The notes beneath the pieces are model-generated. The model had not been told where the DNA came from, searched no databases, and worked only from the letters and a program-made list of their open reading frames with translations. 64,000 bases of DNA. Source: Bacteroidales bacterium. Its GTDB lineage: Bacteria; Bacteroidota; Bacteroidia; Bacteroidales; WCHB1-69. The number at the start of each line of letters is the position of its first letter. The stretch's first letter is position 1. The stretch spans positions 129,600 to 193,599 of the forward strand of contig JAVBLM010000001.1 in assembly GCA_031553535.1 (NCBI GenBank), read 5' to 3'. The position numbers were made by a program, and so were the translations under genes. Of this stretch, positions 22,912 to 64,000 are shown piece by piece.

Positions 22912-22912
22912 A

Positions 22913-39059: not shown

Positions 39060-39986
39060 ATGAACCAGCCTATAGGTGTAGAACTTGAGAATTTTGTTCG
39101 AGAAAAACATCCGAATAAGTATATTTTTAAGAATGAATTAATTATTTATGAAATTGATCAGGTTGATATGGAAATTGCAAAACAAATCCAAGAACAACCT
39201 CCAACCCGGATAAATGCGTCTTCATTCTTTTTTACGACACAAGGAGGAATGAGTGTTGATGTTGATTATCAAAAATATAGATTATCGGAAAACACGATAT
39301 TACAAATATCCAATATCCATATTCTTGACAAACTGAATTTTTCTCCTGACTTCAAAGGATATGTTCTGTTTGTGTCTCAAGACTTATTCAGCGTTATTAA
39401 AACAGAAGTTTTTTCTTTAAAATCATTAGGTTTTGAAACAAATCTTTTCCACCCTATTCTACAATTAAACAGAAAATCAACCCTCCTTCTGGAAGACATT
39501 ATTCACCGCATCCAAGGGCATATAAAAGATACAAATCATATCTTCCAGAGAAACCTCATCAAAAATGAAGTCAGCAACTTTTTGCTGGAACTTGCAGATA
39601 TGAATATTAAAAATGATAAAACTCCTGATCTTGTTTCGGAAACAAATCATAAAGAAGAGGTTTTACAGAAGTTTATCAAATTGATCATTTCGCATTGCAA
39701 AGAACAACATCTGGTCTCTTTTTATGCTTCCGAACTCTGCATGACACCGGAAAATTTATCCAGAATTATAAAAGCTATCAGTGGGGAAACTGTCAATGTA
39801 TGGATAGCAAATGCTTTGCTTGCTGAGTCGAAAATATTGTTGAGGAAACCTAAAATGAGCATTCAACAAGTGGCACAGGAATTGAATTTCGGAAATCAAT
39901 CTTCTTTTGGGAAATTCTTTAAAAAACACACTGGGAAAACCCCACTGGAATATAGAAGTGATGTCCTTTCAGATAAGGGAAATTAG
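39060..39986 (+). CDS. AraC-family transcriptional regulator
   Basis: C-terminal double HTH (ASELCMTPENLSRIIK... IQQVAQELNFGNQSSFGKFFKKHTGKTPLEYR). Confidence 0.85.
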   Translation: MNQPIGVELENFVREKHPNKYIFKNELIIYEIDQVDMEIAKQIQEQPPTRINASSFFFTTQGGMSVDVDYQKYRLSENTILQISNIHILDKLNFSPDFKGYVLFVSQDLFSVIKTEVFSLKSLGFETNLFHPILQLNRKSTLLLEDIIHRIQGHIKDTNHIFQRNLIKNEVSNFLLELADMNIKNDKTPDLVSETNHKEEVLQKFIKLIISHCKEQHLVSFYASELCMTPENLSRIIKAISGETVNVWIANALLAESKILLRKPKMSIQQVAQELNFGNQSSFGKFFKKHTGKTPLEYRSDVLSDKGN

Positions 39987-40046
39987 TAAATAAGACTTTT
40001 TGTAAGTCCGGACGAAAGTAGTAGCTTCTTTGCTTTATCAATAATT

Positions 40047-40301
40047 GGTGTATGACTATATCGTACTTTTGCGTACGAAAGTATCGTTCCACTGCGTACG
40101 TATGTATTGTCCACCTGCATATGCTTGTATCATACTATTTCTTCAATAAACGGACAAATATTATACAATAAATCCATGGAAAGCGAGTTAGGTATACACT
40201 CAATAGACATGAATGTGTCTCATTTAGCTGCCGGGATTTATTTCTACTCCATGGAATTCAACGGACAGAAGATCACCAAGCGAATGAGCATTAAACGATA
40301 A
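40047..40301 (+). pseudogene. Remnant of a T9SS cargo gene: C-terminal sorting domain fragment only
   Basis: ...LYHTISSINGQILYNKSMESELGIHSIDMNVSHLAAGIYFYSMEFNGQKITKRMSIKR* parallels the last ~55 aa of the 2772-aa protein (HVHSISGKLLY...AAGIYIYSMEFNGQRIVKRMSIKR*). There is no body of the gene upstream. Confidence 0.75.
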
Positions 40302-40325
40302 AATCTTTTTCATAATTCAAATTGT

Positions 40326-40355
40326 GGCTGCCTCCCCGGCAGCCTTTTTTATTTT
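40326..40355 (+). terminator. Intrinsic terminator (module copy 2 of 3)
   Basis: GGCTGCC-tcccc-GGCAGCC followed by ttttttatttt. Confidence 0.8.
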
Positions 40356-40449
40356 CTGTGAATTAGCAGGTAATACCTAAGAGATAAAGTAAATAAAATC
40401 AACACCTCCACAGAACAGGATATATACTTCATCTTGAAGGATGTATCTT

Positions 40450-40541
40450 CTTAGGCTCGGAAGCTATTTCCGCTTAGGCAAAGAAGATGCTTCCGCTTAG
40501 GCTCGAAAGGTATGTTCGCTTAGGCTATGATGATACTTTAG
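40450..40541. repeat. Tandem array of four 23-bp hairpin units
   Basis: CTTAGGC recurs at 40450, 40473, 40496 and 40519. Stems are CGGAA/TTCCG, GAAG/CTTC and CGAA/TTCG. A further 2-unit 23-bp repeat (tatcgtacttttgcgtacgaaag / tatcgttccactgcgtacgtatg) is at 40061-40106. Confidence 0.7.
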
Positions 40542-40839
40542 ATTAAAATCCTCCATTCGGGCAAAGCCTCTCCCTTCGTAATGATGCTTTTTACTGTTTT
40601 CTGCATGTTGCTTATTGCACACTCTCTTCCTTTCCGGATTGGTGCATTACATGTAAGAATATCAATTTTCATCTTTCAAATTGAATTAGCATGAACAATC
40701 AAGACTAATTTCACGCATAAATCGAACGTTATTGTCGACTTTTTTATATTTATTTGATTTTTTCTCATTCACTAACAAATACATACATTTTATTGTGCGA
40801 TTATTTTACACAAATGCTCATACCATTCATATTTTATGT

Positions 40840-40847
40840 ATTTTTGC
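40840..40847 (+). promoter_or_regulatory. -7 promoter box (TAttTTTG) upstream of the leader-repeat array
   Basis: Exact TAnnTTTG match. I could not find any other exact match between 40302 and 41780. Confidence 0.3.
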
Positions 40848-40921
40848 TTCGTAGAAACAAAATTATGAGACAAAGATGAAGAAAACATAATTAATAAAGT
40901 TATTTACAAAAATAAAAAAAG

Positions 40922-41780
40922 ATGGAAAAGGTTTTTATTTTTAAAAAAGGTTTTATTATTGTTGACTATACTCCATTCGTCAAGCGAAAGGTTTTTCTTT
41001 ACTAGAATTTAGTCCTTGCTATTCAAGGGCTAAAAAAGTTACTCTTATTCCTATTCCTTAATAATCTTAAAGAATTATTTTCTTTAAACTATTTACAGGT
41101 TTAGCTATAGTGTTACAAGTATTGCTTATTTGTATACTTAAATTCTATCAGAATAAGGAGGAAGCTGAAAATCCTAATTTACAACAGAGTAAGCATAATA
41201 AATAAAAATAAAACAAGATGAAGAAGGTTTTTATTATTATCGACGATACCTATTTCGTCAGGCGAAAGATTTTTCTTTACTAGAATTTAGTCCTTGCTAT
41301 TCAAGGGCTAAAAAAGTTACTCTTATTCCTATTCCTTAATAATCTTAAAGAATTATTTTCTTTAAACTATTTATAGGTTTAGCTATAGTGTTACAAGTAT
41401 TGCTTATTTGTATACTTAAATTCTATCAGAATAAGGAAGAAGCTGAAAATCCTAATTTACAACAGAGTAAGCATAATAAATAAAAATAAAATAAGCCATG
41501 ATGAAGAAGGTTTTTATTATTATCGACGATTCCCATTTCGTCAAGCGAAAGGTTTTTCTCTACTAGGTTTTAGCCCTTTATATCTAAAGGCTAAAGAAGT
41601 TACTCTTATTCCTATTCCTTAATAGTCTTAAAGAATTACTTTCTTTAAACTATTTACAGGTTTAGTTATATCACTACAGGTATTATCTATTTGTATACCT
41701 AAATTGTATCAGAATAAGGAGGAAGCTGAAAATCCTAATTTATAACAGAGTAAGCATAATAAATAAAAATAAAATAAGCC
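40922..41780 (+). repeat. Three head-to-tail copies (296, 280/283, 283 bp) of the giant gene's upstream region plus its first ~20 coding nt
   Basis: ATG(ATG)AAGAAGGTTTTTATT occurs at 41218, 41498 and 41781, and in diverged form (ATGGAAAAGGTTTTTATT) at 40922. The intervening sequence is collinear in all copies. Confidence 0.9.
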
Positions 41781-44700
41781 ATGATGAAGAAGGTTTTTAT
41801 TTTTGTGTTAGGAATATTATTTCTTAACTTAACAGGACATTCCCAATCGGGAGTTCGAAAATGGATAGAGGATTTCGACGGAAGTACAGTTTCGTATGCC
41901 CAGAATCCTCAAGGCTCATGGGTGTTTAACACCGATTATTATCTTCCCAGCTTGAGCGGGTCGAGTGTATCAAAGTCTTATTTGGGATTTGTTCCCAGCA
42001 GAGAGGGAGATACAATTATTTTACAAACCGCCAGTGCATATGATTTGAGTAATTACGACTATGTTCAGTTACGCTTCAGTCACATTTGCAAGGTTTCCCC
42101 CATGGATATTGCAAAGATACAATACCGTATAGCCGGACAACGGTTTTGGGAAGACATCGATCCTGCTGACTATAAAGGAGGCGCTTCTAATTACACAAAA
42201 GCAAGAGGGTTTAATGCTGCAAGTTATCCCGAATGGCAAGCCAGAGACAGTACGGTTATTCCAATGCAATCGTGGTGGAAAGAAGAATTTTTCGACCTGA
42301 CTGTCAACATAAAGAAAATGAGTGGAGTGGAAATCCGTTTTTTGATTATACACGGGGATGTCCCACACACGCAGGCTTCTTTTGGCTGGCTACTGGAAAA
42401 CATCCAGTTAACGGCATCTACCCATGAATTAAGCCCTCCTATCGTAAAGTTCATCCCGCCATCGGTAAAAAATACCGTATATACTACCGGCCCTCATGAA
42501 ATAAATGCGAAGGTAAAAACCACTACCAACGCTCCTATCAAACATCCCTGGCTGAAATATACGGCAACCGAACCCGGTAAACCCGCCGTAACAGATTCCA
42601 TATCAATGACAAAGATAGCAGGAGATAGCTTGTGGAAAGCTACCATACCGCAATATATAGCAGGTACGAAAGTTGAATATTCTATTACAGGAAGAGACAC
42701 TATAGGAAATGAGGCAATCGATATGTCTGGATATGTGATAGTAAGGCCATCGGGAGGAGATAAAACAGGTTATGTCATAGTAGGTACCGGAACAACAACC
42801 ACCTCAACTTATTATTTTCCGGTAGGCCAATATTATGGTACCAGTTGGTCACGACAGATATATTTAGCCTCCGAACTAAATTCTACCTCTGCAGGAGGAA
42901 TAATTACAGAGTTCGCATGGGATTACGCCTCAAGCGGCACATTTAGTAAAACGAATCAATACTGCTATTTTCAAGTGGTAGATGATGTTGCAACTGTTTC
43001 AGGATATACAGATCCTGTTGCCAATGGAGCTACTTTAGTATGGTCGGGCACTTTTTCTGCCTCCGGCGGGCGTACATGGATAAATCTACAATTAGACCAG
43101 CCATTTTATTTACCCCCCGGAAAAAATTTGATGGTGTATTGGATAAATAATAATGGCACATCATATACTTCAACAACCTTATTTAATGGAACCTCCACCT
43201 CGCCAACAAACAGAACAATCTATGCAGGTGCTTTTAGTACAGTTTTTCCATCTACAAGTACCGGAACTCTCACGACAAACAGGCCCAATGCACGTTTTTA
43301 TATTATAGGGACTCCCCCTCTTAATTACTCCGCAGGAACTTTTTCTATAGATATGTCCGATACAATAATAGTATCTCCCGGACTAAGTGTTCCTATTGTG
43401 GCAACAATAAAAAACAAAGGGAAATCGAATCTGGATTCGGTGACGGTATCGTATTCTATCAATAATGCTGCTCACGTATCGAAAAAACTATATTTTAATC
43501 CGGGCTTGCCGTGGGATCACAATTACCAGGATACCCTGGGATATTATGTTCCCGGAGCAGCGATAAACAATGCTATTACCGTATGGATTTCATCTCCCAA
43601 TGGCGTACATGATTCCACTACCTGGGATGATACCTTAACAAAAAATGTATATGGAAGCAGTGATCTACTGGTAGCATTTGTTAGCCCGCCGGCTAATACC
43701 GTATATACCACCGGTCCATATGGGATAAAAGCTTCTATAAAGAGTATTACCGGAGCTGCACTCCCTGTCACTATTTCCTTACATGTAGATTATACCTATC
43801 AGGGAGTAACCACCAGTGATGTATTGCCCATGCTGTTGGATGCATCGGATAATTTATGGAAAGCCACCATACCCCAAAAACGCTTTAACAATCATGTTGA
43901 ATATTCAATTAGCCTGATAGATATAGTGGGTAATACTGTCGTCTTATCAAATAGCTATGATATCAAACGTTTGTGCGAAGGAACATCTAAGGGCTGCGAT
44001 ACCAATTCGGTGGGATTGGTTTCTATCGATTCACCGGAAAAAACAGGAGTACTCGCAGGCTATGATAAACCGGTACGGGTAACGTTGAAAAACAAGGGAG
44101 TGGCAGACTTGGATTCCTGTTATCTCAATTGGAGCCTCAACGGAGTACAACAACCGGGCACAGCTGTCTATAGAGGGCCATTGCCGGATGATTTTACCGA
44201 TACGATTACCGTAGGGTCGTACATGCCTGTAGCGAATCAAAGGGATACGATAAAGGTATGGGTAAGCATGCCCAACGGGAAGGTAGATCCTGTTAAAACG
44301 GATGATACATTGACGGTATCTCCATTGGGATGCGGAACTATTTTATCGGGTTATCACCAGATAGGGGAAGGCAGAACGTATACAAAATTGACCGATGTGT
44401 TAAATATAATACGTAATTGCGGAGTAAGCGGAAATCTTATTTTGCAGTTGAAAGGAGAACATCCGGGTGCGGATTTGAATGGCATATCGAATTATCTGCA
44501 AGGATATACTCTAACAATTACCTCGTATGATAATGATCCGGATAGTGCTAGAATAAAGGTTACCAGCGGAGCCGGCATTACACTCAATAACAGCAACAAT
44601 ATTGTAATAAAAAGCATTACTGTCGATGCAACCAAAGCATCGTATGCGATTCAGTTTACGGGAACATGCACCAATGTGGTCATACGCGATTGCAAGTTAT

Positions 44701-50099: not shown

Positions 50100-50122
50100 A
50101 ATCTATACATAATTCAAATCAT

Positions 50123-50151
50123 GGCTGCCTCCCCGGCAGCCTTTTTTATTT
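50123..50151 (+). terminator. Intrinsic terminator (module copy 3 of 3)
   Basis: GGCTGCC-tcccc-GGCAGCC followed by ttttttattt. Confidence 0.8.
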
Positions 50152-50154
50152 CAC

Positions 50155-50460
50155 AGGTTTCCTTGTTATTCGAAGGCATAGCTCCATGTTGTTTTAAAGA
50201 AGTCCATAGGCACTACAAGGTTGGGAAAGGGATATTCATTCTTGTTTAAAGATGTCCCAAGGCTGGGAAAGGGATTTTCATCTTTGTTTGGAGGTGTCCC
50301 AGAATTGGGAAAAGGATTTTCACTCTTATTTGAAGGTGTCCCAAAGTTGGGAAAGGGGTTTTCATCCTTGTTTAGAGATGTCCCAGAATTGGGAAAAGGA
50401 TTTTCACCCTTATTTGAAGGTGTCCCAGGGTTGGGAAAGGTTCATGCAGCTATTACAAGG
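50155..50460. repeat. Tandem array, about 7 units of exactly 42 bp, two hairpins per unit
   Basis: TGGGAAA recurs at 50222, 50264, 50306, 50348, 50390 and 50432, with one or two degenerate units to the left. Unit: tgggaaagggattttcatctttgtttggaggtgtcccagaat. Hairpin TCCCA-gaat-TGGGA. Confidence 0.9.
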
Positions 50461-50575
50461 GAAAATAATACAATATATCTTTAACCTCCTATCAAAAAGA
50501 AATATATTCCGGTCATTATAGGACTATCTTTGCATCAACTTTTGATAATTTTATTACAAGTATTTAATATTTGTT

Positions 50576-50583
50576 TATATTTG
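50576..50583 (+). promoter_or_regulatory. -7 promoter box (TAtaTTTG) upstream of the TPR-LuxR regulator gene
   Basis: Exact TAnnTTTG match 27 nt upstream of the ATG at 50610. Confidence 0.35.
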
Positions 50584-50609
50584 TATTTCATATTTTCGAG
50601 AACATTATA

Positions 50610-52286: not shown

Positions 52287-52336
52287 CTTCTCAGAATTAA
52301 TTTAAATCACTAAATTTCAAATAAAAACACAATAAT

Positions 52337-52372
52337 GTCTCGTTTTTGCTCGTTATTGTCTTGTTTTTGCTC
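52337..52372 (+). promoter_or_regulatory. Direct repeat TGTCT(C/T)GTTTTTGCTC x2 (20-bp period) upstream of the second giant gene
   Basis: tgtctcgtttttgctc (52337-52352) and tgtcttgtttttgctc (52357-52372). An imperfect inverted repeat tttgtaaaga-n13-tcttttacaaa follows at 52408-52441. Confidence 0.3.
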
Positions 52373-52452
52373 TCTTATATAAATAATGGAAAAAGATTTT
52401 TTCTCATTTTTGTAAAGATATTCTTATTAATCTTTTACAAATTTTACGTGTT

Positions 52453-55400: not shown

Positions 55401-58400
55401 TGTATGTTCATCTATATACAGTACAGGAATATATACTATCGGAAAAACAGCAAGTTCTTTTACATCGGTAGAAGAAGCTATTAAGAAGCTATCTCTTTGC
55501 GGAGCAAACGGAGACATTACACTGGAAATAAAAAACGGTACATACGCCAACACCGTCGACCTGACCGGTATTTCTTCTTTGTTAGGGAACAATAAATTGA
55601 CCATCAAATCCCAAAGCGGAAACCCCGGAGATGTTATTCTACAAACAACCAATATCGGATTTACATTAGCACGAAGCAATAACATTGTAATAGATGGCGT
55701 AACAATAGATGCAAAGGGAGGAATAGTAGGCATACAGTTTTTAGATACATGTACAAATGTTGTCATTCAAAATTGTATATTATTGGTTGATACAACCGTC
55801 ACATCCAACAAATATGGTGGGATTTATAAGCCCAGTATTGCCAATGTTGCAGATAGCATCTTTATACTAAATAATATTATAGAAGGAGGGCATTTTGGGA
55901 TCTGGCTTTATGGTGTCAGCTCAAGTGTCTATGACAGTAATATTTTTATAACCGGTAATGCTATCTCCAAACAATCACATTATGGAATTTATTTATATTA
56001 TACTGATTTTAGAATTATATCAAACAATATAATAACAAGCAGATTGTCCAACATAAATACTTCATGGACAGGAATAAATACTTCAAATACGAATGGAGAC
56101 ATTATTGCAAATAAAATAAAACAATTAAACAGGGCAATATCATATGCAGTAGGAATAAGTCTTTCAAATCATAATAATAACAAAACGGAGTTAGCGCTGA
56201 TTGTAAACAATGAAATAAATGGTTATGTGGGAAATGGTTATGCTGCATTAGCTCTTTCAAGTACTCGTGCCGATATTATACATAATTCTATATATGTTCG
56301 AAGAGTTGCAGGTTCAAAGGGTATTGGTATAAGTGACGGAACCAGTAATCGTCTCAATATTAAAAATAATAATATTATAATGGACACTACGGGTACCTTC
56401 CCTATCTATATTAATGGTTCTTCAAATGCAGCTTTGTATAACTTTGAATCTAACAACTATTATTCGCCAAGTTACATAGGATACGCAGGTGCAAATAAAG
56501 TAACAATGGAGCAATGGCAAGATGTGTTCTTTACAGATATTAATTCCGTAAAGGTTCGTCCTACCTTTATAGACAGTACTATTAATTTAAAATTCATAAA
56601 TTATGACAGTGTAAAATGTCCTGTTTTGTCAGATGTTGATACCGATTTGGAAGATAGCATCCGGGCAGGGGCATTTACAGCAATGGGATGTTATCATGGA
56701 TTTGCACCTTTTTCGAAGAATATTAAACTAACGGAAATCCTTAATTGGAATGAAGGGCCAGTCTATGGAACAAATGATACGGTTAAGGCTGTAATTATAA
56801 ATACCAGTTTATCCTCTTTCTTGCCACAAACTATTAATTGGTCTTTTAATGGAAATTCCAGAACAGGAGTTCCATCAAACAAGACATTGGCATATGGGGA
56901 AAGGGATACCATTACGTTAGGAATAATAAATTACGGTTTGGGACATAATATATTAACTGCATGGATCGATAATTCTCAGGACAATTATCTCGAAGATGAT
57001 ACGATACTGGCAACAAGTTATATATGTTCTACAGCCGGAATTAACGGTACTTTCACGGTAGGAAAAACAGGGGATTTTAAAACCATAAATCTTGCACTAC
57101 AACAAATAGAAGACTGCGGAGTAAATGGAAATATTATACTGAAAGTACAACCCGGCCTGTATGTTGAAGACATAGACTTAACTGACTATGCTTTAATATT
57201 AGGTAATAATAAATTGACGATTACCTCTACTACAGGAAATGCTGAAGACGTTGTTTTTAAAACACTGTCAGTGGGAATGATATTGTCCCAAAGTAATAAT
57301 ATCGTTATAGATGCCATTACAATTGATGCAACAAAAGGGAAGTTTGCAATACAATTTAAAGGCGCTTGCACCAATGTTGTAATTAGTAATAATATTCTAT
57401 TAGCAAACCTAACTACAACTTATAGCGATTATAATCCTATACATAAAGGTAGCAATACAGGTGTAGTTGATAGTATTTTTATTGTAAATAATGAATTAAA
57501 CGGAGGATATATTGGTTTTAATTTTATTGGAGGAGTAGCTTCGACCCTTGGAACAAATGTGGTTTTTGACAGTAATCGAGTTTTCAATACACATACTTCG
57601 GGAATATATCCGCAATATACTCATTTTACCAGTATTTCGAATAATACCATATTAAGCAGAACGGAAAATACAATAACCAGTACATGGTATGCAATGCGTT
57701 TTGAAAGTTGCAATGGCCCCATTACAAATAACCGGATAAAACAACAAAGTAATGTGATTGCACAACCTTACGGAATATATCTTAATAATTATAGTATCAA
57801 TTCAACAGCAGATACTGCATTGATTGCCAACAATGAAGTCATGCTTAATGTTGCAACAGGTACAACAGGTGGCATATATACAAATGTTTCCCGTACAAAA
57901 ATTATCAATAATTCCATTTACGTATCCGGTGCTGCTGCAGCAAGGGGAATGTATATTGCTAATGATAATAATAGCCGTACTGTCGCAAAAAACAATAATA
58001 TTGTTGTGGCATCTTCTTCTGCATATCCTATTTATCTGAATTACGTAACCAATATGAGTTTATGTGATCTGGATTACAACAATATGTACGGCACCGGATA
58101 CGTGGGATACTGCGGAAGTACCGGAGGTGCAAAAGCCACCATAGATGCCTGGCAACAATTTGTTACCAGTGATAAGCATTCAGTGAGTGTTTATCCGAAT
58201 TTTATTGATCTTACCAAAAATATGGATCTATTGGATAGTGTATTGAGTTGCCCTGTATTTGAAAATGTTACAGAAGATATAAATAAGAATACTCGTGTTT
58301 CTCCCAACACTACAATGGGTGCATATCAATATATAGGTACAACACACGATGTCCATCCTGTTGAATTTGTAAATTTATCTCCAACTTATCCGCTTGGAAC

Positions 58401-61400
58401 GCTTATTCCATTGCAGGTTGCCATTACAAATTCCGGAACCGATACATTAAAATCAGCTTTGATCAGTTGGACTGCCAATGGAGTATTACCATACAAAGTA
58501 CAACCCTGGCAAGGAAACCTGGCACCGGGAGAAACAGAAGTCGTTCCTGTAACAACAGGTAGCCTGACACTTGGAGCAGGAAATACAGACTTAATATTAT
58601 TCACCAGTATGCCTAATAATGTTCCGGACACGAGAACATTTAATGATACGTTGAGAACCTCTATCTATGCATGCGACAGTATGCTTAACGGGACATACCT
58701 GGTTGGTACCGGAGAAGATATCGAAGATTTAAAAACCGTTTTTGAATTATTATCCAAATGTGGAATTGATGGAACCGTTACGTTCAAGCTAACTCCGGAT
58801 ACCTACACATGGAATCAAAATATAGGGACATATCCGGGAGTAAATTATTACAACAGGATTATCTTCACATCATCCACTTCAAATGCCGGAGATGTAACTA
58901 TACTTTCTACAGGTACCGCTTCCATGACTTTAAGCCAGGCAAAATATATTACCCTAAAAGATATTACTATCGGTAATTCATCCGCTGCCGTAGCTTTACG
59001 TTTCTCCGGAACATGTAGTGATATTGAAATCAATGGCTGTATTATTTCAGCTAATCCGACAACAACAGTTGCCACATCAAGGGCTATTGAGTATGTCGAA
59101 ACATACGGGAGCGGAAACAAACTGGATAATATCCGAATAGTAAACAACACAATAAACGGCGGATATTATAATGTATATTTTGATTATCCCGGCAGTTCGG
59201 AAAATGCCGTGTCGGACATTACTTTTGATAACAATATATTAACGAATGCATATTCGTATGGTTTCTATTCGAAGAACTGGGGATATTATCGCAGTATTTC
59301 GGATAATACAATTAAAACACGAAATGCAAATACTACTCAATATGGTATATATGCAGAGGCCAACACAAATATTGATAATTTGAACCGGAATAAAATACAT
59401 CTGTATGGAACATCCAATTCCAATGGTATTTATTTATCCGGGATTAATTCCTCTACATATCTGACAAGATACAATGCCCAAATAATAAACAATGAAATAA
59501 TTATTTCAAGTGCCGGAGGCAGCAACCCCAGTTACGGAATATCTACATCCAACACTAATGCAACCATGTTCCACAACTCTATCTATTTGCAAGGAACCGC
59601 CGGTTGCTACGGATGGAATATCGCTTCAACCGCGGCTACATATTCCCTTATCTCCAAAAACAATCTATATGTAACCAAGACAACAGGGGCAGGCTATCCT
59701 CTTTATGCAAGCAATGCCACCTTTGTAACAACGGCAGGAGGGACAATTTCAGATTACAATAATTATTACACCACAGGAACAAATATTGCTTTTATTGGAT
59801 CTCCTGTAGCAACACTTGCCAATTTACAAACCGCAACGGGGCAGGATGCTAACTCAACAAACAAAGAACCGGTATTTACCGATGTTACCAAAAGTTTGGA
59901 AATTGCAGATGCGGCAAATATAATATGTCCTGTCAATCCGGTTGTATTATCTGATATCAGAGATGTTTTACGTGTTGATTCAACCAACATCGGAGCATAC
60001 GGAATTGCGTTAAAGAAACTGGATGCTATGGCCACGGAGATTATTCTGTCTTCCGACCAGAGCACCCCTACCCTCAAAATTAAAAACACAGGAAAGGACA
60101 CTATTAAATCAATAGAAATTAATAGTTTGTACAACGGAAGAGTAAAATCACCTGTATCATGGAATGGCTCCATTGCTTCCATGGAGGAAGTATCGATTGT
60201 TTTGGATACAATTATGGCCGACCCGGATTATAATACAATCACTGCGTGGATCAGCAATGTAAACGGTGGAGGATTGGATTCCTTACAGTTAAATGATACT
60301 GCAAGTACTGCATTCTATCTATGCCAAGGAGGGTTAGCCGGAATATATACTGTCGGGAATTCAGGCAAGTTTAAAACGATTGATAATTTTATAGATGTGA
60401 TAAGCAAATGTGGAGTAAGTGGAGCTATTACTTTAGCATTTGAAGATGGAACACACAATATAACATTCGATGTATCGTCTATCTCTACCATATTAAACTC
60501 TCACCCATTGACTATTACTTCCGAAAACCAGGATTCTTCTTTAGTTAAGCTTATCGCGTTGAAAGATGCGGTTATATTATTAGGGAATAATACAAATGTT
60601 ACAATTAAAGATCTGACGATAAATGCGAAACAAGCCAAATATGGAATACAATTTACAGCAGCATGTTCGAATATTGTCATTGACAAATGTGCTATATTGG
60701 CAAACCCAACAACAACACAGAATAATAGCTATCCTATTTTTAAAGGAGATAAAACAGGTATTGCGGACAGTATCCGTATTACAAATAATCTTCTTGATGG
60801 CGGCTATACCGCATTGTGGTTTTATGGCGGAATTGACAATAATACATACGGAAAAAATATAGTCCTGGACAGTAATACGATAAGCAATCAATCCCATTAT
60901 GGAATATATCCGCAATATGTAGATTTTTTCAGTGTATCTTATAATACGGTTTTAAGTAGAACTGCAAACATAAATACAACATGGATAGGATTGCGAATGC
61001 AATATGCAAATGGTCCCGTTATCGGCAATAGTGTTATCCAAAGAAGTAATGACATAACACATCCAACAGGTATTTACGCATATTACTATAATTATTATCT
61101 TGCCGGCAACAACATAGGTCGCATAATAAACAATGAAGTTATCTTGAATACCACAGATATGCAAAGCGGGATAGAAATAGGTTACTCTAATGTTGACGTT
61201 ATCCATAATTCCATATACATAACAGGAACAGGAGCTGCCCGTGGAATTACAACCCGTGCTGAGATTAATAACCTGACTATCAAAAACAACAATATAGTAA
61301 CAACAGCGACCAGTTCATACCCTATCAGTATTACAAATAGATTGGTATTAAGACCTAATAATATCGATTATAATAACTATTACGCACCTACATACATCGG

Positions 61401-64000
61401 ATCTGTCGGATACGCATACACGTCTTTATCCGATTGGAGATCAGTAGTAACTTCGGATCAGAATTCCGTAAGTGTCATGCCGAATTTCAAGAATCCAACT
61501 ACAAGCCTGGAACTATCCGATTATTCCCACTTATTATGTCCGCTGTATACAAATGTGACAACAGATATACTGGGAGAAACCAGGGAAAGCCTGACAACAA
61601 TGGGAGCATATACTCAGATCATCTCTCCATTTGACTTAATGCTTAGCAATATAAGTGTAGACAAAGAGATTGTGAATAATCAGAAAGTTCCCATAAGCAT
61701 TAAGGCCATAAATGTCGGGCATACTCCTATAAATGAAGCCGATCTCGGATGGAGCATTAATGGTGTACCGCAAATACCTGTCACATGGACAGCTGCTAAC
61801 AGCCTGAATCTTTTCGATGAAGAAGATATCTACATTGGTACATTCGAAGCACGCGATACAAATACATTCGACATTGTTGTTTGGATAGAAAATATCAATG
61901 CCTTTCCGGATCCTGTAAATTGGAACGATACCGTATCTGCTTCATCTATTGTTGTTCCCCTGATAGAATTTGCAGCACCATTCGTGCCGGATACTGTCTA
62001 TGCCCGTTCTTTCGATGTATATGTAAAAATAATGGAAGGAACCGGTGCTACCATGGTAACGCCTGCATTAAATGTACAATCCTTATTCAATGATACTACA
62101 TTTTACGATACGATAGCTATGAGTCTGGAGAATAATGGATTATGGAAAGCCCAAGTCTCTCAACAATATTATTACAGCAAAATCAATTACGATATAACCG
62201 TAACGGATACCGTTGGAAATAGCATTACACTATTCGATACCACATATATTAAATTTGCTTCCGGAAGTGAATTATACCCCGGAAATAATTTAAGTTTGAT
62301 AGCGGTAAATGATCTCGTAGATCCTAATGCGCTTTGTTCGCCGGATTATACTTCCGTATCGGTTGATATATTAAATACCGGGGAGAACAATCAAGATTTC
62401 TCCGTCAACAATATCACCTTAAGCTTACGGGTAACGGAGCCTATTGTATTCAGCGTAGATACAATAATTAAAACAGGATCTTTGGTTGCAGGCAAGGTAT
62501 CCACCATAAAAATAACCGACATGATGCCTATTGTTACGGCAGGAGCATACGATCTTAAAATATGGATGGATAATCCGATAGATGGTATCGTGCATGATGA
62601 TACCTTATGGTTCAACTATGTAACCGGAAGATTTGCCCTGCCTGTTGATGAAGACTTCAGCAATGGTATTCCTATGGTATTCACAGTAAAGACAAATAAT
62701 GATCCTTATAAATGGGATACAATAGTGAAAGGAACAGGAAGCGATACCGCAGTTAAACCTGTATATGGAACAAAAATGTTATCCTTTACCGGAACTCCCG
62801 GTTCCATGTCTACATTATCTACGCGTCAGCTGGATTTGAGCAGGACGATCGATCCGTCCCTGACGTTCTGGTATTTCCATGATACCGTTGCCGGAGAAGA
62901 TTACACGGATGTGCGCATTACCGTAGACGGAGGAGACTCCTACTCTACCCTGTTCTCTCTTACAAAATACGATCCTGCTTATTGGGGGTGGAAAGAATAC
63001 AATATTGACCTGCCGTCTTTTGCTATCAATCAATGTGTGATCATTGCATTCGAAGCAATGGAAAAAACACATGGTAAAAGCGTTGTTCAATACATTGACC
63101 GGATTCTTATCACCTCCAGCCAAAATCTTTCATTAGATACATTATTATTACCTGAGGTATCTGCATGTGATCTGAACGGACAGGAATTGAAAGTCGTTTT
63201 AAGAAATACGACCGGACAACGGATTAATTTCTCAGATGCCCCGATGGAAATACATATCAATGTTACGGGAGCTCTGAATAGAAAGATCACTTATCCATTA
63301 CGTGGCGCTATGGACGGATTAGAAGTTGATACGCTTACAATAACTACACATTTTGATTTTGCCGCCATGGGAGATTATTATTTTAAAGCCTACATAAGTA
63401 CGCTTGCGGCAGATTTCAACCGCAAGGATGATACTACGACAAACCATCTTCTTATTAATCCGAGACTGGATCTGAGAATCATTCCTAACTCAAATGGTTT
63501 CGATAATTGTCTCTTGGCAGGAACAAAAATAAATCAAGAGGTTATCGTTAAGAATAACGGAAATATGGATCTATCCGGTATTGAACTTACATTGCGCATA
63601 GACGCTCCCGAAGCAACTCCTCCTTATTTTGAGATTATACGAAATACTATATCCGGAACTATTGCTGCCGGGGATTCTATCCGGTACCCGTTCACCGATT
63701 TCTATACTGTGCCCTGGAGCCCGACTTATCAATTACAGGTATTCGCCAACCTGAATTGTAATCCCGGTCTACTAAATCCAAGAACATCGGCTGAGGAATG
63801 TGTCAATATAGATGATCTCGCACTTATTGCTATCAGTAATCCTCCCAGGCAAATTGACACGGTGGGATCGAATATCAATATTGAGGTAATTCTGGAAAAC
63901 AGAAGTGATGTCGTTTCTTACTCCGGTGTAAAAATACATGCACGGATAGAAGACTCTAAAGGAAATATAAAAGCCGACATATCGGAAGCTATTTCCAATA
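52453..64000 (+). CDS. Second giant T9SS-type beta-helix surface protein, paralogue of 41781-50099 (3'-partial; at least 3849 codons in window)
   Basis: ATG at 52453 with signal peptide MKKWMFLLLVTLISLQASYSQ. The N-terminal domain is collinear with the first giant protein (FNHICKISPRD vs FSHICKVSPMD; SYGWLLDNIEITAS vs SFGWLLENIQLTAS). Frame 1 yields no terminated ORF in the track across 11.5 kb, which is consistent with one unbroken frame. The frame is still open at 64000 (..VKIHARIEDSKGNIKADISEAISN). Confidence 0.88.
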   Translation, partial: MKKWMFLLLVTLISLQASYSQNVSYERENFDGNSISFVSQPSSSWRIDKNYYVSSPNSYRGVVPNKSGDSTILTSPPYDFYTNGYSNILLRFNHICKISPRDIVRIEYKIQNQGWLPIPATAYLGKAANYITTGFNAASYTQWQANDSTALPTNNWWKEETFDLGFLMGYAPNAQIRFIIKHGSTPGTQISYGWLLDNIEITASTYLVRDPIVEFIGSVVKDTVNSTGPYTINAKVQTTTSAPIKTPFLTYTYTLNGVSTTNSIEMDPVSGDSLWRGVLPQIEGGSTVSYSITGYDTNGNNATVQERYFIKKPSGNDSVSVALTSINSPAKGENPVGATPVTATFRNKGDSTLRAVEINWSLNGVLQTVQPHTWTGGLPWDFEHTEQLGTFNPRLRMSDTIVIWVNNPNGIQDPKHSDDTLSIITYGCPVDVSGSFPVGKNSEFKTIQEAFNSFQKCSPTGNITLELESDTIRENWDFSNINSFMNGYMLTITSLKHHRDSVVLRPNTGGIGITLGNTRNLTLDAITVDVSHLIPQIPVMMNVYAIYFSNTCTNIIINNCNIKAHKTSNSTNIHPIFKGSTGLADSIYITNNILDGGYSGFTFPGGNTNQYGKNIVFDSNTLTNQYYYGINASYTDFKSISNNTILSREAANFSATWIAIYMNNANGNITGNRIRQRNTSNITNPRGIFSYYHNYYFTNDTALIANNEIIIYTTGEYEGIQVNYSRSKIIHNSIYVKGSGSSRGIYINEPGYVNIHVIKNNNIIMESAAAYPIQISKATNIRSYDINSNNYYAPTYIGNIGGTGGDKLTMDAWQKMVTTDVNSVRIRSSFIDSTKNLKMRDYTGLECKPLPEVPKDIDNTPRLGLTTMGCYHYDPMYTVNARLTDLQGWREGNISGESDTVKVLLTNTGATPLTNANLTWIFNGAETTTAWSGTLAKGESTTVTLGKITYISGNYTITARIDNLGGSLQDDFLQDDTTSVSIFVCSSIYSTGIYTIGKTASSFTSVEEAIKKLSLCGANGDITLEIKNGTYANTVDLTGISSLLGNNKLTIKSQSGNPGDVILQTTNIGFTLARSNNIVIDGVTIDAKGGIVGIQFLDTCTNVVIQNCILLVDTTVTSNKYGGIYKPSIANVADSIFILNNIIEGGHFGIWLYGVSSSVYDSNIFITGNAISKQSHYGIYLYYTDFRIISNNIITSRLSNINTSWTGINTSNTNGDIIANKIKQLNRAISYAVGISLSNHNNNKTELALIVNNEINGYVGNGYAALALSSTRADIIHNSIYVRRVAGSKGIGISDGTSNRLNIKNNNIIMDTTGTFPIYINGSSNAALYNFESNNYYSPSYIGYAGANKVTMEQWQDVFFTDINSVKVRPTFIDSTINLKFINYDSVKCPVLSDVDTDLEDSIRAGAFTAMGCYHGFAPFSKNIKLTEILNWNEGPVYGTNDTVKAVIINTSLSSFLPQTINWSFNGNSRTGVPSNKTLAYGERDTITLGIINYGLGHNILTAWIDNSQDNYLEDDTILATSYICSTAGINGTFTVGKTGDFKTINLALQQIEDCGVNGNIILKVQPGLYVEDIDLTDYALILGNNKLTITSTTGNAEDVVFKTLSVGMILSQSNNIVIDAITIDATKGKFAIQFKGACTNVVISNNILLANLTTTYSDYNPIHKGSNTGVVDSIFIVNNELNGGYIGFNFIGGVASTLGTNVVFDSNRVFNTHTSGIYPQYTHFTSISNNTILSRTENTITSTWYAMRFESCNGPITNNRIKQQSNVIAQPYGIYLNNYSINSTADTALIANNEVMLNVATGTTGGIYTNVSRTKIINNSIYVSGAAAARGMYIANDNNSRTVAKNNNIVVASSSAYPIYLNYVTNMSLCDLDYNNMYGTGYVGYCGSTGGAKATIDAWQQFVTSDKHSVSVYPNFIDLTKNMDLLDSVLSCPVFENVTEDINKNTRVSPNTTMGAYQYIGTTHDVHPVEFVNLSPTYPLGTLIPLQVAITNSGTDTLKSALISWTANGVLPYKVQPWQGNLAPGETEVVPVTTGSLTLGAGNTDLILFTSMPNNVPDTRTFNDTLRTSIYACDSMLNGTYLVGTGEDIEDLKTVFELLSKCGIDGTVTFKLTPDTYTWNQNIGTYPGVNYYNRIIFTSSTSNAGDVTILSTGTASMTLSQAKYITLKDITIGNSSAAVALRFSGTCSDIEINGCIISANPTTTVATSRAIEYVETYGSGNKLDNIRIVNNTINGGYYNVYFDYPGSSENAVSDITFDNNILTNAYSYGFYSKNWGYYRSISDNTIKTRNANTTQYGIYAEANTNIDNLNRNKIHLYGTSNSNGIYLSGINSSTYLTRYNAQIINNEIIISSAGGSNPSYGISTSNTNATMFHNSIYLQGTAGCYGWNIASTAATYSLISKNNLYVTKTTGAGYPLYASNATFVTTAGGTISDYNNYYTTGTNIAFIGSPVATLANLQTATGQDANSTNKEPVFTDVTKSLEIADAANIICPVNPVVLSDIRDVLRVDSTNIGAYGIALKKLDAMATEIILSSDQSTPTLKIKNTGKDTIKSIEINSLYNGRVKSPVSWNGSIASMEEVSIVLDTIMADPDYNTITAWISNVNGGGLDSLQLNDTASTAFYLCQGGLAGIYTVGNSGKFKTIDNFIDVISKCGVSGAITLAFEDGTHNITFDVSSISTILNSHPLTITSENQDSSLVKLIALKDAVILLGNNTNVTIKDLTINAKQAKYGIQFTAACSNIVIDKCAILANPTTTQNNSYPIFKGDKTGIADSIRITNNLLDGGYTALWFYGGIDNNTYGKNIVLDSNTISNQSHYGIYPQYVDFFSVSYNTVLSRTANINTTWIGLRMQYANGPVIGNSVIQRSNDITHPTGIYAYYYNYYLAGNNIGRIINNEVILNTTDMQSGIEIGYSNVDVIHNSIYITGTGAARGITTRAEINNLTIKNNNIVTTATSSYPISITNRLVLRPNNIDYNNYYAPTYIGSVGYAYTSLSDWRSVVTSDQNSVSVMPNFKNPTTSLELSDYSHLLCPLYTNVTTDILGETRESLTTMGAYTQIISPFDLMLSNISVDKEIVNNQKVPISIKAINVGHTPINEADLGWSINGVPQIPVTWTAANSLNLFDEEDIYIGTFEARDTNTFDIVVWIENINAFPDPVNWNDTVSASSIVVPLIEFAAPFVPDTVYARSFDVYVKIMEGTGATMVTPALNVQSLFNDTTFYDTIAMSLENNGLWKAQVSQQYYYSKINYDITVTDTVGNSITLFDTTYIKFASGSELYPGNNLSLIAVNDLVDPNALCSPDYTSVSVDILNTGENNQDFSVNNITLSLRVTEPIVFSVDTIIKTGSLVAGKVSTIKITDMMPIVTAGAYDLKIWMDNPIDGIVHDDTLWFNYVTGRFALPVDEDFSNGIPMVFTVKTNNDPYKWDTIVKGTGSDTAVKPVYGTKMLSFTGTPGSMSTLSTRQLDLSRTIDPSLTFWYFHDTVAGEDYTDVRITVDGGDSYSTLFSLTKYDPAYWGWKEYNIDLPSFAINQCVIIAFEAMEKTHGKSVVQYIDRILITSSQNLSLDTLLLPEVSACDLNGQELKVVLRNTTGQRINFSDAPMEIHINVTGALNRKITYPLRGAMDGLEVDTLTITTHFDFAAMGDYYFKAYISTLAADFNRKDDTTTNHLLINPRLDLRIIPNSNGFDNCLLAGTKINQEVIVKNNGNMDLSGIELTLRIDAPEATPPYFEIIRNTISGTIAAGDSIRYPFTDFYTVPWSPTYQLQVFANLNCNPGLLNPRTSAEECVNIDDLALIAISNPPRQIDTVGSNINIEVILENRSDVVSYSGVKIHARIEDSKGNIKADISEAISN
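53400..61620 (+). repeat. Five copies of the ~1.63-kb CARDB + beta-helix supermodule inside the second giant gene
   Basis: Marker motifs: FSNTCTNIIINNCNI (~54092), FLDTCTNVVIQNCILL (~55738), FKGACTNVVISNNILL (~57355), FSGTCSDIEINGCIIS (~59002) and FTAACSNIVIDKCAIL (~60650). Spacing is 1615-1650 nt. Confidence 0.75.

Follow-up and report, generated by a model that had tools for sequence, protein, structure and literature searches.

A plausible SusR-like membrane regulator paired with giant T9SS cargo proteins of CARDB and beta-helix modules in an uncultured Bacteroidales bacterium

Introduction

ToxR and CadC each combine a periplasmic sensor and a cytoplasmic DNA-binding domain in a single protein, which binds direct repeats upstream of its target promoter while anchored in the membrane. 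Among the proteins secreted by the T9SS, SprB and RemA of Flavobacterium johnsoniae are very large, repetitive surface adhesins; of the two, SprB functions in gliding together with dedicated partner proteins, its C-terminal domain is of type B, and its repeats differ from those described here. The control of fimbriae in Porphyromonas gingivalis involves FimS, a histidine kinase with a periplasmic TPR sensing domain that works with a response regulator, and PfbA of Streptococcus pneumoniae (3zpp) is a surface adhesin without catalysis that consists of a single right-handed parallel beta-helix with a Gram-positive anchor. SusR of Bacteroides thetaiotaomicron and the DUF6377 proteins join an extracytoplasmic helical-repeat sensor, one transmembrane (TM) helix, and a C-terminal HTH domain; SusR is encoded beside the genes it controls and has no kinase partner. 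The DUF6377 proteins are described as predicted regulators that associate with the membrane and are encoded in carbohydrate loci (bioRxiv 10.1101/2024.03.25.586180; 10.64898/2025.12.01.691665). Past the regulators of the secretion machinery, little is known about how Bacteroidota choose among T9SS-secreted proteins.

Here we analyze a 64,000-nt stretch of DNA (the window) from an uncultured Bacteroidales bacterium, in which a putative membrane regulator is encoded between two giant genes for T9SS cargo. The regulator apparently shares with SusR and the DUF6377 proteins the domain order and, most likely, the topology, and, like SusR, it adjoins the genes it putatively controls and has no kinase partner. 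Unlike in the SusR and DUF6377 loci, however, the neighbors are T9SS cargo genes rather than SusC/SusD or glycoside hydrolase genes, the signal need not be a sugar, and the protein scores far under the cut-offs of both families. With ToxR and CadC, it would share the placement of sensor and DNA-binding domain in one membrane protein, but these regulators have the opposite orientation, with an N-terminal winged helix of the OmpR-like fold, as opposed to the LuxR-like fold here, and a C-terminal sensor; no sequence relationship to either was found. The TPR sensing domain, the occurrence in Bacteroidota, and the association with a gene for a surface appendage recall FimS, and the TPR region indeed matches the NCBIfam FimS model (5e-15, 55 bits, with a cut-off of 600), but the regulator lacks a kinase domain and has an HTH fused to the sensor instead. 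The giants, in turn, resemble SprB and RemA in being very large, repetitive, predicted T9SS type A cargo and differ from SprB in the type A domain, the CARDB and beta-helix repeats, and the absence of adjacent gliding genes; they resemble PfbA in the predicted right-handed parallel beta-helix and non-catalytic surface role, whereas PfbA lacks the pairing with CARDB and the tandem supermodules. The reading that we favor, with moderate confidence, is that of a regulated surface-display cassette in which a SusR-like membrane regulator controls the downstream giant gene, and the product of the latter is displayed via the T9SS as a non-enzymatic fiber.

Results

Organization of the locus and the giant proteins

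Proteins related to those of the host are annotated as originating from Bacteroidales MAGs, and two [FeFe]-hydrogenase genes were found in its DNA, which indicates that the bacterium is an anaerobe. An initial annotation, made from the letters of the DNA alone, listed an AraC-family regulator, the remnant of a T9SS C-terminal domain, a repeated leader, two giant genes, an array between them, and a regulator with TPR, TM, and LuxR-like parts; all these elements are present, at or close to the positions it gave. Its description of the locus as self-contained does not hold, because no genes of the T9SS machinery were found among the scanned ORFs of the window, those outside 9083-9739, 13076-13588, and 15563-28773.

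The first giant gene, giant 1 (41781..50099, plus strand), encodes a protein of 2772 amino acids (aa). It begins with a signal peptide and a jelly-roll and Ig head, followed by an insert of its own (approximately aa 330-500) and a CARDB/Ig region; next come two supermodules, each consisting of a CARDB domain and a right-handed beta-helix (approximately aa 745-1300 and 1301-1860), then an Ig/CARDB/jelly-roll-like tail, and, at the end, a T9SS type A C-terminal domain, the sorting domain known as TIGR04183 and PF18962. As the initial annotation had proposed, the latter is a bona fide match, scoring 35.2 bits against TIGR04183 (cut-off 23) over residues 2696-2771 of 2772. A sequence search of the PDB with giant 1 yielded no match. 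Giant 2 (52453..64000, plus strand) is open at the end of the window, with 3849 aa encoded inside it; the complete protein has 3996 aa and extends approximately 441 nt further. The library protein P0137 (3992 aa) is full-length giant 2, with no mismatches over the 3845-aa overlap, and provided the last 147 aa. Giant 2 consists of a signal peptide, a jelly-roll and Ig head, five supermodules of the same kind (approximately aa 335-3085, repeating every 550 aa or so), a tail like that of giant 1, and also a type A C-terminal domain, which lies beyond the window and scores 47.7 bits against TIGR04183 in P0137. Pfam recognizes in this protein Beta_helix (PF13229, 30.5 bits compared to a cut-off of 25.9) and CARDB (PF07705, 53.6 and 22.7, respectively). 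The N-terminal Sec signal peptides of the giants, read from the sequence, are MMKKVFIFVLGILFLNLTGHSQS and MKKWMFLLLVTLISLQASYSQ.

The two giants share one scaffold, as originally suggested, with 47% identity in the head and 32-35% identity over more than 1300-2000 aa (BLASTP). The "MAM-like" domain and the C-terminal run of CARDB domains are identified by the homology between giant 1 and giant 2 and by weak Pfam matches; an NCBIfam scan at E <= 0.01 recovered only the type A domain, in giant 1 and at the C-terminus of giant 2. The model of the head (AF2 pLDDT 87), for which the alignment consisted of the 15 short contig-end fragments that were the only homologs found, combines a jelly roll and an Ig domain similar to MAM-Ig, meprin MAM, and ephrin-receptor modules (Foldseek). 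The possibility that the giants recently underwent gene conversion, or vary rapidly relative to each other, was considered and rejected; their DNA identity reaches at most 73%, in short patches.

The supermodule is predicted to be a scaffold rather than an enzyme

The AF2 model of the supermodule (pLDDT 81) consists of a CARDB Ig domain, with a TM-score of 0.69 to the CARDB domain of PF1109 (3idu) in a Foldseek search, and a right-handed beta-helix. The top Foldseek matches of the helix are to GH28 exopolygalacturonase (1e-5), GH87, chondroitinase B, PL6 alginate lyases, and phage tailspikes. One could therefore propose that each giant is a secreted polysaccharide lyase or hydrolase in which every beta-helix serves as a catalytic module acting on plant or host glycans, with the regulator sensing the products, in the way SusR does with maltose; the SusR-like architecture of the regulator and the similarity of the head to the sugar-binding jelly rolls of GH2 enzymes (Foldseek) would fit. 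These helix matches are, however, generic, with about 10% identity and TM-scores of 0.25-0.38, and the adhesin PfbA matches equally well (3zpp, approximately 0.27-0.34).

The conservation profile that we derived from 648 supermodules of 150 giants also argues against enzymatic activity. The residues conserved in at least 80% of the modules are an Asn ladder, Gly, two Asp of the CARDB domain, and a C-terminal cap (D, D, R). In the helix body, in contrast, no charged residue reaches this level, with Asp, Glu, Lys, and Arg all under 80%, whereas the catalytic sites of GH28, PL1, PL6, and PL9 are invariant; only His 386 (51%) and Asp 441 (63%; profile positions) are found there in at least half of the modules. 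This lack of conserved charged residues favors a scaffold or adhesin over an enzyme. Furthermore, the window and the related loci alike contain neither SusC/SusD genes nor other CAZyme genes beside the giants. We consider the enzymatic explanation unlikely, with the qualification that an active site that is not conserved or is specific to individual modules is possible, given that the best helix matches are glycoside hydrolases and lyases. Thus, from the earlier proposal of a surface adhesin or glycan-interacting system, the adhesin or scaffold part is favored, and glycan cleavage is not; likewise, the search for catalytic constellations in a supermodule that had been recommended at that point recovered enzyme-like folds but no conserved catalytic constellation in the helix body.

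The supermodule is by no means confined to this locus, which had seemed to match no named system: it recurs in 3263 protein clusters at E <= 1e-30. Giants of 1,200-7,800 residues made of CARDB and beta-helix modules form a very large, unstudied family, and are likely to be major determinants of the attachment of uncultured anaerobic Bacteroidales to particles, hosts, and partner cells.

A putative one-component membrane regulator

Between the giants lies the gene for the regulator (50610..52286, plus strand, with an alternative TTG start at 50571). The protein consists of a signal peptide, a TPR domain of approximately 300 aa (Pfam TPR_12, 8e-19), a TM helix (approximately residues 340-362 when numbered from the ATG, or 353-375 from the TTG), a coiled coil, and a LuxR/sigma70-r4-like HTH that occupies the last 65 aa or so. 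With this order of parts, the TPR domain would be periplasmic, and the coiled coil and HTH, cytoplasmic. Judging from the sequence, the product of this gene could plausibly be a one-component regulator of the SusR-like kind that is dedicated to T9SS cargo.

The similarity to characterized regulators is remote. The protein scores 20.2 bits against the SusR model NF058541 (cut-off 480) and 17.6-18.4 bits against DUF6377 (cut-off 36.7); the match to the BT3442 family (NF053779; 50.5 bits, cut-off 940) aligns residues 78-554 with model positions 109-562, that is, nearly the full length of the regulator. The family to which it belongs includes at least 218 matches, with mean identity of 38% in the TPR domain, the most divergent part, 64% in the coiled coil, and 55% in the HTH. 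Among 39 members, DUF6377 matches 18, weakly, over the TM and coiled-coil part, Sigma70_r4_2 matches 14, and GerE matches 13, with a best E-value of 5.7e-4 and a score that falls short of the Pfam threshold. When a profile of the C-terminal region was compared with the PDB, the only natural proteins to match were of the LuxR/FixJ type (3clo, E = 0.007; EvgA, 0.04; FixJ, 0.2; EsrB, 0.4), all at profile positions 65-123 and all weakly. A literature search found no description of this family paired with T9SS cargo.

The weakness of the HTH scores leaves room for a different role, namely, that of a membrane-anchored periplasmic chaperone or assembly factor for the neighboring giant, in which case the DNA repeat described below would be no more than a common promoter element. 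Proteins or peptides are the usual ligands of TPR domains, a TPR domain is present in the T9SS component PorE (PMC12773672), and the pairing of one regulator with one cargo gene would suit such a function as well. Yet conservation of the protein is highest in the coiled coil that follows the TM helix and in the last 65 aa, the C-terminal profile matches exclusively LuxR/FixJ DNA-binding domains among the natural PDB proteins, some family members carry the JGI annotation "CsgD-family regulator", and a dimeric activator would require a phased direct repeat of the kind found directly in front of the cargo promoter. A chaperone function is, in our opinion, very unlikely, and we proceed with the regulator assignment.

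The regulator gene is linked to T9SS cargo genes

The initial annotation would have been contradicted by a lack of conserved linkage between the regulator and the giants in related genomes; we found that the linkage is retained across paralogs and across orders. The survey rests on about 20 loci, rather than hundreds, with 14 informative contexts in which the regulators are at least 36% identical; a profile scan of contigs retrieved mostly generic TPR proteins, with the family represented only in L011, L012, L062, L091-L093, L096, and L107. In 10 of the 14 contexts (the window, L002, L003, L005, L172, L006, L173, L009, L010, and L175), the next gene on the same strand encodes T9SS cargo or a giant. 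The type A domain was recorded for eight of these ten genes; in L005, which comes without Pfam data, and L172, where the gene is cut at the contig end, the cargo was assigned by homology of the N-terminal head to the giants. Cargo is encoded one gene further on in two contexts (the first regulator of L003, and L091), and no cargo gene is found downstream in the remaining two (L011 and the second regulator of L009). In Bacteroidales, the cargo is a beta-helix giant; in a distant clade of regulators, which includes Chryseobacterium and Epilithonimonas, it is a 760-780-aa BNR/Sortilin protein. Because both the type of cargo and the flanking genes differ, it is the regulator-cargo pair itself that is conserved. 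No SusC/SusD pair adjoins the regulator, whether in the window or in those loci of the family that were examined; L006 and L173 contain TonB-dependent receptor genes, located apart from the regulator and without a SusD gene.

Linkage of this kind might reflect inheritance alone, with a two-gene cassette copied repeatedly within one lineage and no regulatory meaning. Such copying is apparent from the numerous paralogs per contig (one contig of 119,843 bp has five, and another, of 41,086 bp, has three) and from the order giant-regulator-regulator-giant in L003, and the linkage within the close clade could indeed stem in part from cassette duplication rather than selection. However, regulators with only 36-42% identity precede another class of T9SS cargo in two different neighborhoods, a direct repeat of the type described below, with its copies equally far apart, is also present in the loci of the distant clade, and the paralogous pairs are old, with DNA identity of at most 73% between the giants and about 50% protein identity between the regulators. 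Hence, we view inheritance as the sole cause of the linkage as highly improbable and retain the interpretation of a regulator and its cargo.

A candidate operator between the regulator and giant 2

The spacer 3' of the regulator gene contains a candidate operator (52337..52372, plus strand), a direct repeat TGTCTCGTTTTTGCTC / TGTCTTGTTTTTGCTC with the copies 21 bp apart, which lies 81-116 nt before the ATG of giant 2. There are weaker copies at 52401 and 52421. Its general form, GTC-N4-5-T-rich present twice at a distance of 21-22 bp, recurs in the same place in L002, L003, L005, L172, L091, and the BNR clade. An unbiased test for self-repeats (13-mers at offsets of 21-22) gave a mean best score of 10.2/13 in 12 regulator-to-cargo spacers, compared to 8.1 +/- 1.1 in shuffled sequences and 8.0 in 28 further intergenic regions taken from these loci, none of which reached 11; the GTC motif was the best pair in 10 of the 12 spacers. 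A scan with a PWM, which was built from the same loci that it scores and yields a background of 10 pairs in 1.8 Mb, detected two sites outside the training set, at L091 11713, directly 3' of the regulator, and at L009 14271, in front of a second cargo gene. In several loci, a -7-like xAnnTTTG box follows the second repeat by approximately 45-48 nt.

Neither upstream of giant 1 nor upstream of the regulator gene was such a repeat found. The candidate operator is thus present only between the regulator and giant 2, which is evidence for control of the downstream giant and not of both: the earlier suggestion that the TPR-TM-LuxR protein drives the two flanking giants is plausible for giant 2 and does not extend to giant 1.

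Under the favored scenario, the periplasmic, variable TPR domain would receive a signal, and the active regulator would bind the two GTC direct repeats, which are separated by two helical turns, just ahead of the next gene's promoter, activating giant 2. The protein would then be exported by Sec, pass through the T9SS by means of its type A C-terminal domain, and probably become anchored on the cell surface, where it could form a long fiber, with five CARDB and beta-helix modules bearing the jelly-roll and Ig head. Such a fiber may serve as an adhesin or a structural surface layer rather than as an enzyme. The linkage of regulator and cargo behind a common repeat points to an undescribed mode of switching on secreted surface proteins. 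Together with its relatives, the locus provides a testable unit in which a single membrane-spanning regulator is combined with a single DNA repeat and a single cargo gene; this unit is also found in culturable Chryseobacterium and Epilithonimonas, where genetics is possible.

A broader hypothesis, which we put forward as a long shot, is that the TPR-TM-LuxR proteins are an unrecognized class of T9SS cargo regulators in which the TPR domain monitors the state of the cargo or of secretion, and that the cassettes make up a repertoire of alternative fibers. If so, production of each giant would be limited to times when its export is possible, the TPR domain might watch the C-terminal domain of the neighboring giant in transit, and the expanded cassettes of this Bacteroidales lineage would encode condition-dependent surface fibers.

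An argument against the favored scenario is that paralogous regulators have very similar HTH domains and repeats, so that it is hard to see how each of them would act on its own giant alone.

Giant 1 has a different control region

Giant 1 is a paralog built on the scaffold of giant 2 but differs from it in the control region, namely, a triplicated leader (40947..41801, plus strand) that consists of 3.0 tandem copies of a 283-nt unit with 91% matches (TRF). Each copy terminates in the giant 1 start codon and the first codons of the ORF and contains the DUF805b RNA motif (Rfam RF02914). The gathering score of 35.6 bits is reached by two of the three copies, the first (41155..41195, plus strand; 36.5 bits) and the third (41716..41756, plus strand; 39.7 bits), which is followed after 25 nt by the ATG of giant 1; the second (41433..41473, plus strand; 33.5 bits) falls just short of it, with an E-value of 1.5e-7 in a local search.

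The nearest regulator gene upstream of giant 1, on the same strand, is that of the AraC family (39060..39986, plus strand; Pfam HTH_18, 9.5e-19). If it controlled giant 1, the locus would comprise two regulator-giant pairs, and TIGR04094, the model of an AraC-type surface antigen regulator, does match the gene product weakly (47 bits, far under the cut-off of 200). Nevertheless, 1.8 kb with the remnant, a strong terminator, and repeat arrays separate the two genes, the AraC gene is divergent from a TetR-TolC-MFP-RND efflux operon (32654-38938), and none of the 16 related loci has an AraC homolog. Control of giant 1 by this gene accordingly seems quite unlikely to us, and its membership in the system, which had been assumed at first, is not supported: it is a mere neighbor.

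Remnant, terminators, and tandem repeats

Downstream of the AraC gene is the remnant of a type A C-terminal domain from a lost giant-type gene (40068..40301, plus strand), which scores 29 bits against TIGR04183 (cut-off 23) and is 46% identical to residues 2689-2772 of giant 1 and 67% identical to the last 54 aa of giant 2 (tblastn). A terminator scan located a hairpin with a T-run 3' of the remnant (40326..40355, plus strand), and a homologous one was read from the sequence 3' of giant 1 (50123..50150, plus strand). Both are part of a 62-nt module that recurs after the remnant, giant 1, and ftsZ (40294-40355, 50091-50151, and 30150-30211; 84-95% mutual identity) and also matches the locus L003 at 8049-8201 (blastn). 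We also sought the paralog P0030 of the same contig, without locating its position.

The intergenic regions contain two more tandem repeats identified with TRF, a 23-nt unit in 3.3 copies (40450..40526, strand unassigned) and a 42-nt unit in 5.4 copies with an 84-nt super-period (50216..50440). The latter had been described as a hairpin array but amounts to a simple tandem repeat, whose RNA folding does not exceed that of shuffled sequences (z = 0.15). It has no match in loci L002-L170, L003 and L005 included, and was found elsewhere only in L001, which comes from the same organism. By eye, the 23-nt repeat and the 42-nt array have an AGGCTnGGAA core in common.

Organization of the locus

The locus comprises, in order, an AraC-family gene (39060-39986), a remnant of 77 codons from a T9SS type A C-terminal domain (40068-40301) with a strong terminator after it, a 283-nt leader unit in three copies (40947-41801), giant 1 (41781-50099; 2772 aa), a 42-nt tandem repeat (50216-50440), a gene encoding a TPR-TM-HTH regulator (50610-52286), and giant 2 (52453 to the window end). 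This is the gene order proposed in the initial annotation, with each element present at or near its expected position. The explanation that we favor, with moderate confidence, is that the regulator is a SusR-like membrane protein that turns on the downstream T9SS cargo gene via phased GTC repeats, the cargo being a giant, non-enzymatic surface fiber.

The AraC-family gene, listed in the initially proposed gene order, was dropped as a member of the system: it lies in divergent orientation to a TetR-TolC-MFP-RND efflux operon, and no homolog was found in 16 related loci, so that control of giant 1 by this gene finds no comparative support.

Linkage of the regulator to T9SS cargo genes

The regulator family includes at least 218 members, with several paralogs on some contigs (five on 119,843 bp and three on 41,086 bp). 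Among members of the close clade (45-57% identity), the next gene is a giant in the window and in L002, L003, L005, and L172; in L003, the order is giant-regulator-regulator-giant, such that the giant of the first regulator comes after the second regulator. In L091 of the same clade, the giant lies 2.1 kb beyond the regulator, and a downstream giant is missing only in L011, a short contig. In the distant clade (36-42% identity), which takes in Epilithonimonas pallida and Chryseobacterium, the next gene encodes a BNR/Sortilin-Vps10 protein of 760-780 aa that carries a T9SS C-terminal domain, in two distinct neighborhoods (L006 and L173 versus L009, L010, and L175). In L009, a single regulator is followed by three tandem T9SS cargo genes (11755-18487; two BNR/Sortilin, one FG-GAP/Kelch). 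Even more divergent members (23-27% identity) lie ahead of genes for a Sortilin/BNR protein (L092) and an Omp28/CarboxypepD_reg protein (L107), each truncated at a contig end.

The conserved unit is the pair of a regulator followed by a T9SS cargo gene, with varying flanking genes and cargo type. The comparative check on regulator-giant co-occurrence called for in the initial annotation thus shows the linkage to giants retained in the close clade and a linkage to T9SS cargo in the distant one. Duplication of a cassette could by itself produce such a linkage; however, this explanation is weakened by the persistence of the pair in the distant clade. The regulator, the repeat, and the cargo together make up a simple, testable unit of cargo-specific T9SS regulation, and a literature search found no paper that links this family of regulators with T9SS cargo.

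Past the third cargo gene of L009 comes another regulator of the family (18725-20329), which has no cargo gene downstream. Tandem regulator pairs with overlapping or abutting ORFs (L062, 3-3512; L003, 8250-11713) hint at heterodimers or recent duplication.

A putative one-component membrane regulator

The regulator consists of a signal-peptide-like N-terminus, ~300 aa of TPRs (TPR_12, 8e-19), a single hydrophobic helix (FFIFVVIFMIILSIIAIWIY), a coiled coil, and a C-terminal helical domain. Among the NCBIfam models, only sub-threshold matches were obtained, to FimS (TPR region), the BT3442 family (nearly full length), and SusR. A profile of the last ~130 aa, built from 25 regulator homologs and compared with the PDB, matched, with weak scores, four natural LuxR/FixJ-type DNA-binding domains (3clo, 0.007; EvgA, 0.04; FixJ, 0.2; EsrB, 0.4), all covering the same profile positions, as well as one unrelated protein, an Obg-like ATPase (E 0.66). 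Single-member Pfam scans of 39 homologs detected GerE in 13, Sigma70_r4_2 in 14, and DUF6377 in 18; DUF6377 proteins are SusR-like, membrane-associated predicted regulators of carbohydrate loci (bioRxiv 10.1101/2024.03.25.586180; 10.64898/2025.12.01.691665). Mean pairwise identity among the 39 homologs is lowest in the TPR region (38%) and highest in the coiled coil (64%) and the HTH (55%), the pattern expected of a diversifying sensor with a conserved output. To bind DNA, the C-terminus has to lie in the cytoplasm, which would place the TPR domain in the periplasm. The regulator might instead be a chaperone rather than a transcription factor, but the LuxR/FixJ-type profile matches and the preferential conservation of the coiled coil and HTH make this less likely.

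On this computational reading, the regulator would work similarly to SusR and, more loosely, to ToxR/CadC. However, it falls below the curated thresholds for SusR, DUF6377, and BT3442 alike and, unlike SusR, is located outside any polysaccharide utilization locus.

A phased GTC repeat between regulator and cargo genes

The spacer between the regulator gene and giant 2 contains TGTCTCGTTTTTGCTC and TGTCTTGTTTTTGCTC, 21 bp apart. This repeat occupies the equivalent position in L002, L003, L005, and L172, and the BNR-clade loci carry a variant (GTCAC.CT.TTTC / GTC.T..TATTTCT) with a 22-bp spacing. In a motif-free test, the best 13-mer self-match at an offset of 21-22 averaged 10.2 across 12 regulator-to-cargo spacers, compared with 8.1 +/- 1.1 for shuffles and 8.0 for 28 further intergenic regions from these loci, none of which reached 11; the GTC motif itself was the best pair in 10 of the 12. 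Such a signal in these spacers is further evidence against the chaperone function. A PWM pair scan, with a background of 10 pairs in 1.8 Mb, recovered two sites outside the training set, one directly after the regulator in L091 and the other before the second cargo gene in L009 (14271). In several loci, a -7-like box (xAnnTTTG) lies ~45-48 nt past the second repeat, which would put the GTC repeats just upstream of the promoter, the place of an activator. Neither giant 1 nor the regulator gene has the repeat upstream.

In the proposed mechanism, the one-component membrane regulator would act through the phased repeats to switch on the downstream T9SS cargo gene, in the window a non-enzymatic surface fiber of the giant 2 type. 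Given that paralogous regulators have similar HTHs and repeats, something else must keep the pairs private; specificity perhaps comes from the membrane-tethered position of each regulator beside its own gene. All functional statements on the locus are computational.

The only other PWM pair in the window (15504-15540, minus strand) lies just upstream of the dcw cell-division cluster, on the opposite strand, and is unremarkable because the background allows one chance match in 64 kb.

Architecture and fold of the giants

The two giants can be aligned end to end, with 47% identity in the head and 32-35% in the remainder (BLAST). The previously noted common scaffold, with two supermodules in giant 1 and five in giant 2, each of ~550 aa, was upheld by windowed BLAST and pairwise alignment. 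The complete giant 2 protein (P0137; 3992 aa), identical to the window translation across an overlap of 3845 aa, ends in a type A sorting domain, as does giant 1. In Porphyromonas gingivalis, type A domains mediate outer-membrane translocation and are removed by PorU, with attachment to anionic LPS (PMC8545088); by analogy, the giants would be anchored at the cell surface. In size and secretion route, they are similar to SprB-type adhesins, from which they differ in having a type A domain and different repeats.

An AlphaFold2 model of the supermodule, with the seven copies from the window as the alignment (pLDDT 81, pTM 0.76), consists of an Ig-like CARDB domain, a right-handed parallel beta-helix of ~13 rungs, and a lower-confidence cap. 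In Foldseek searches, the CARDB part resembles the PF1109 CARDB domain (TM 0.69), and the helix matches GH28, GH87, chondroitinase B, PL6 lyases, phage tailspikes, and the adhesin PfbA, all at ~10% identity and TM 0.25-0.38; therefore, only the fold is in common. The N-terminal 315 residues are modeled as a jelly roll and an Ig domain (pLDDT 87), and the structures closest to the head are MAM-Ig of RPTP-mu, meprin MAM, ephrin-receptor ligand-binding domains, and GH2 sugar-binding plus Ig modules. Farther along, the MAM-like domain and the run of CARDB domains toward the C-terminus are homologous between the giants, with marginal Pfam detection.

Giant 1 contains an extra Thr/Ser/Gly-rich domain of ~170 aa (42771-43310, residues ~330-510; weak Pfam DUF4082 match, 0.02) that giant 2 lacks. 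Comparison of the two giants revealed no sign of recent gene conversion.

Enzyme or structural fiber

At E <= 1e-3, a supermodule profile search of 1.84 billion proteins retrieved 9214 cluster representatives, a number that falls to 3263 at E <= 1e-30. The best 150 matches are 1,198-7,814 aa long and contain 1-11 complete modules (median 4); 92 of these end in a C-terminal domain like that of giant 1, 89 start with the same head, 79 have both, and the MAM-like segment is also matched in 79. The architecture is therefore a trait of the family rather than a peculiarity of this locus, and the giants are members of a large, unstudied family of surface proteins.

Known beta-helix lyases and hydrolases (GH28, PL1, PL6) possess invariant acidic or basic groove residues. 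In an alignment of 648 near-complete modules from the best 150 proteins, the positions conserved at 80% or more are an Asn ladder, several Gly, two Asp of CARDB, and D...D.....R......G in the C-terminal cap. Within the helix body (giant 1 residues ~860-1210), no charged residue reaches this level in the 648 modules, and only His 386 (51%) and Asp 441 (63%; profile positions) are conserved at 50% or more. Thus, of the structural and catalytic check proposed initially, the beta-helix fold was borne out and a conserved catalytic constellation was not. The possibility that the giants are multi-catalytic glycan-degrading enzymes is weakened by this lack of conserved charged residues, and the alignment favors a structural or adhesive fiber, with binding sites specific to single modules being possible.

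Leader, terminator, and repeat elements around giant 1

Each of the three leader copies closes with the first codons of the giant 1 ORF and matches DUF805b, a cis-regulatory motif in Rfam with a gathering score of 35.6, at 41155-41195 (36.5 bits), 41433-41473 (33.5 bits), and 41716-41756 (39.7 bits). In this motif, the purine-rich AAGGAGGAAG pairs with UCCU 25 nt ahead of the start codon. None of the other giants examined has the motif in front of it, and we know of no tie between the motif and T9SS cargo.

The remnant with its terminator and a 23-nt repeat parallels the 3' end of giant 1 with its terminator and the 42-nt repeat, and resembles the remains of a deleted cassette. A module of 62 nt, made up of a stop codon context, AAAATCTTTTTCATAATTCAAATTG, and a GGCTGCC...GGCAGCC hairpin with a T-run behind it, is found after ftsZ (30150-30211), the remnant (40294-40355), and giant 1 (50091-50151), with 84-95% identity, and also after a giant in another organism's contig (L003, 8049-8201); possible explanations are a terminator cassette that is reused or mobile and a scar left by recombination.

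The 42-nt array, initially described as a hairpin array, folds no better than shuffled sequence and has no match in the other loci compared except L001, from the same organism. One reading frame through it stays open and forms an ORF of 89 codons with an ATG start (50252-50521) that would yield 14-residue repeats of the type VSQxWE(R/K)xFHxxLx; this ORF is probably non-coding because most differences between the repeats alter the amino acid.

Genomic neighborhood

Two adjoining [FeFe]-hydrogenase genes lie at the window start (30-3253; Fe_hyd_lg_C, 4e-98 and 1.5e-40), near genes for HtpG, AspRS, a peroxiredoxin, and a small leucine-rich-repeat protein (8456-9076, minus strand); this region fits a strictly anaerobic, fermentative member of the Bacteroidales. 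The giant locus (39060-64000) is located ~10 kb downstream of ftsZ (cell-division region 15563-30151). In Bacteroides thetaiotaomicron, a cluster of surface and pore-forming lipoproteins that begins with the TPR protein BT_3442 comes directly after the same cell-division operon (PMC2954219), and the BT3442 family is the best, albeit sub-threshold, full-length NCBIfam match of the regulator. The shared position after the cell-division operon may reflect an old positional relationship or coincidence.
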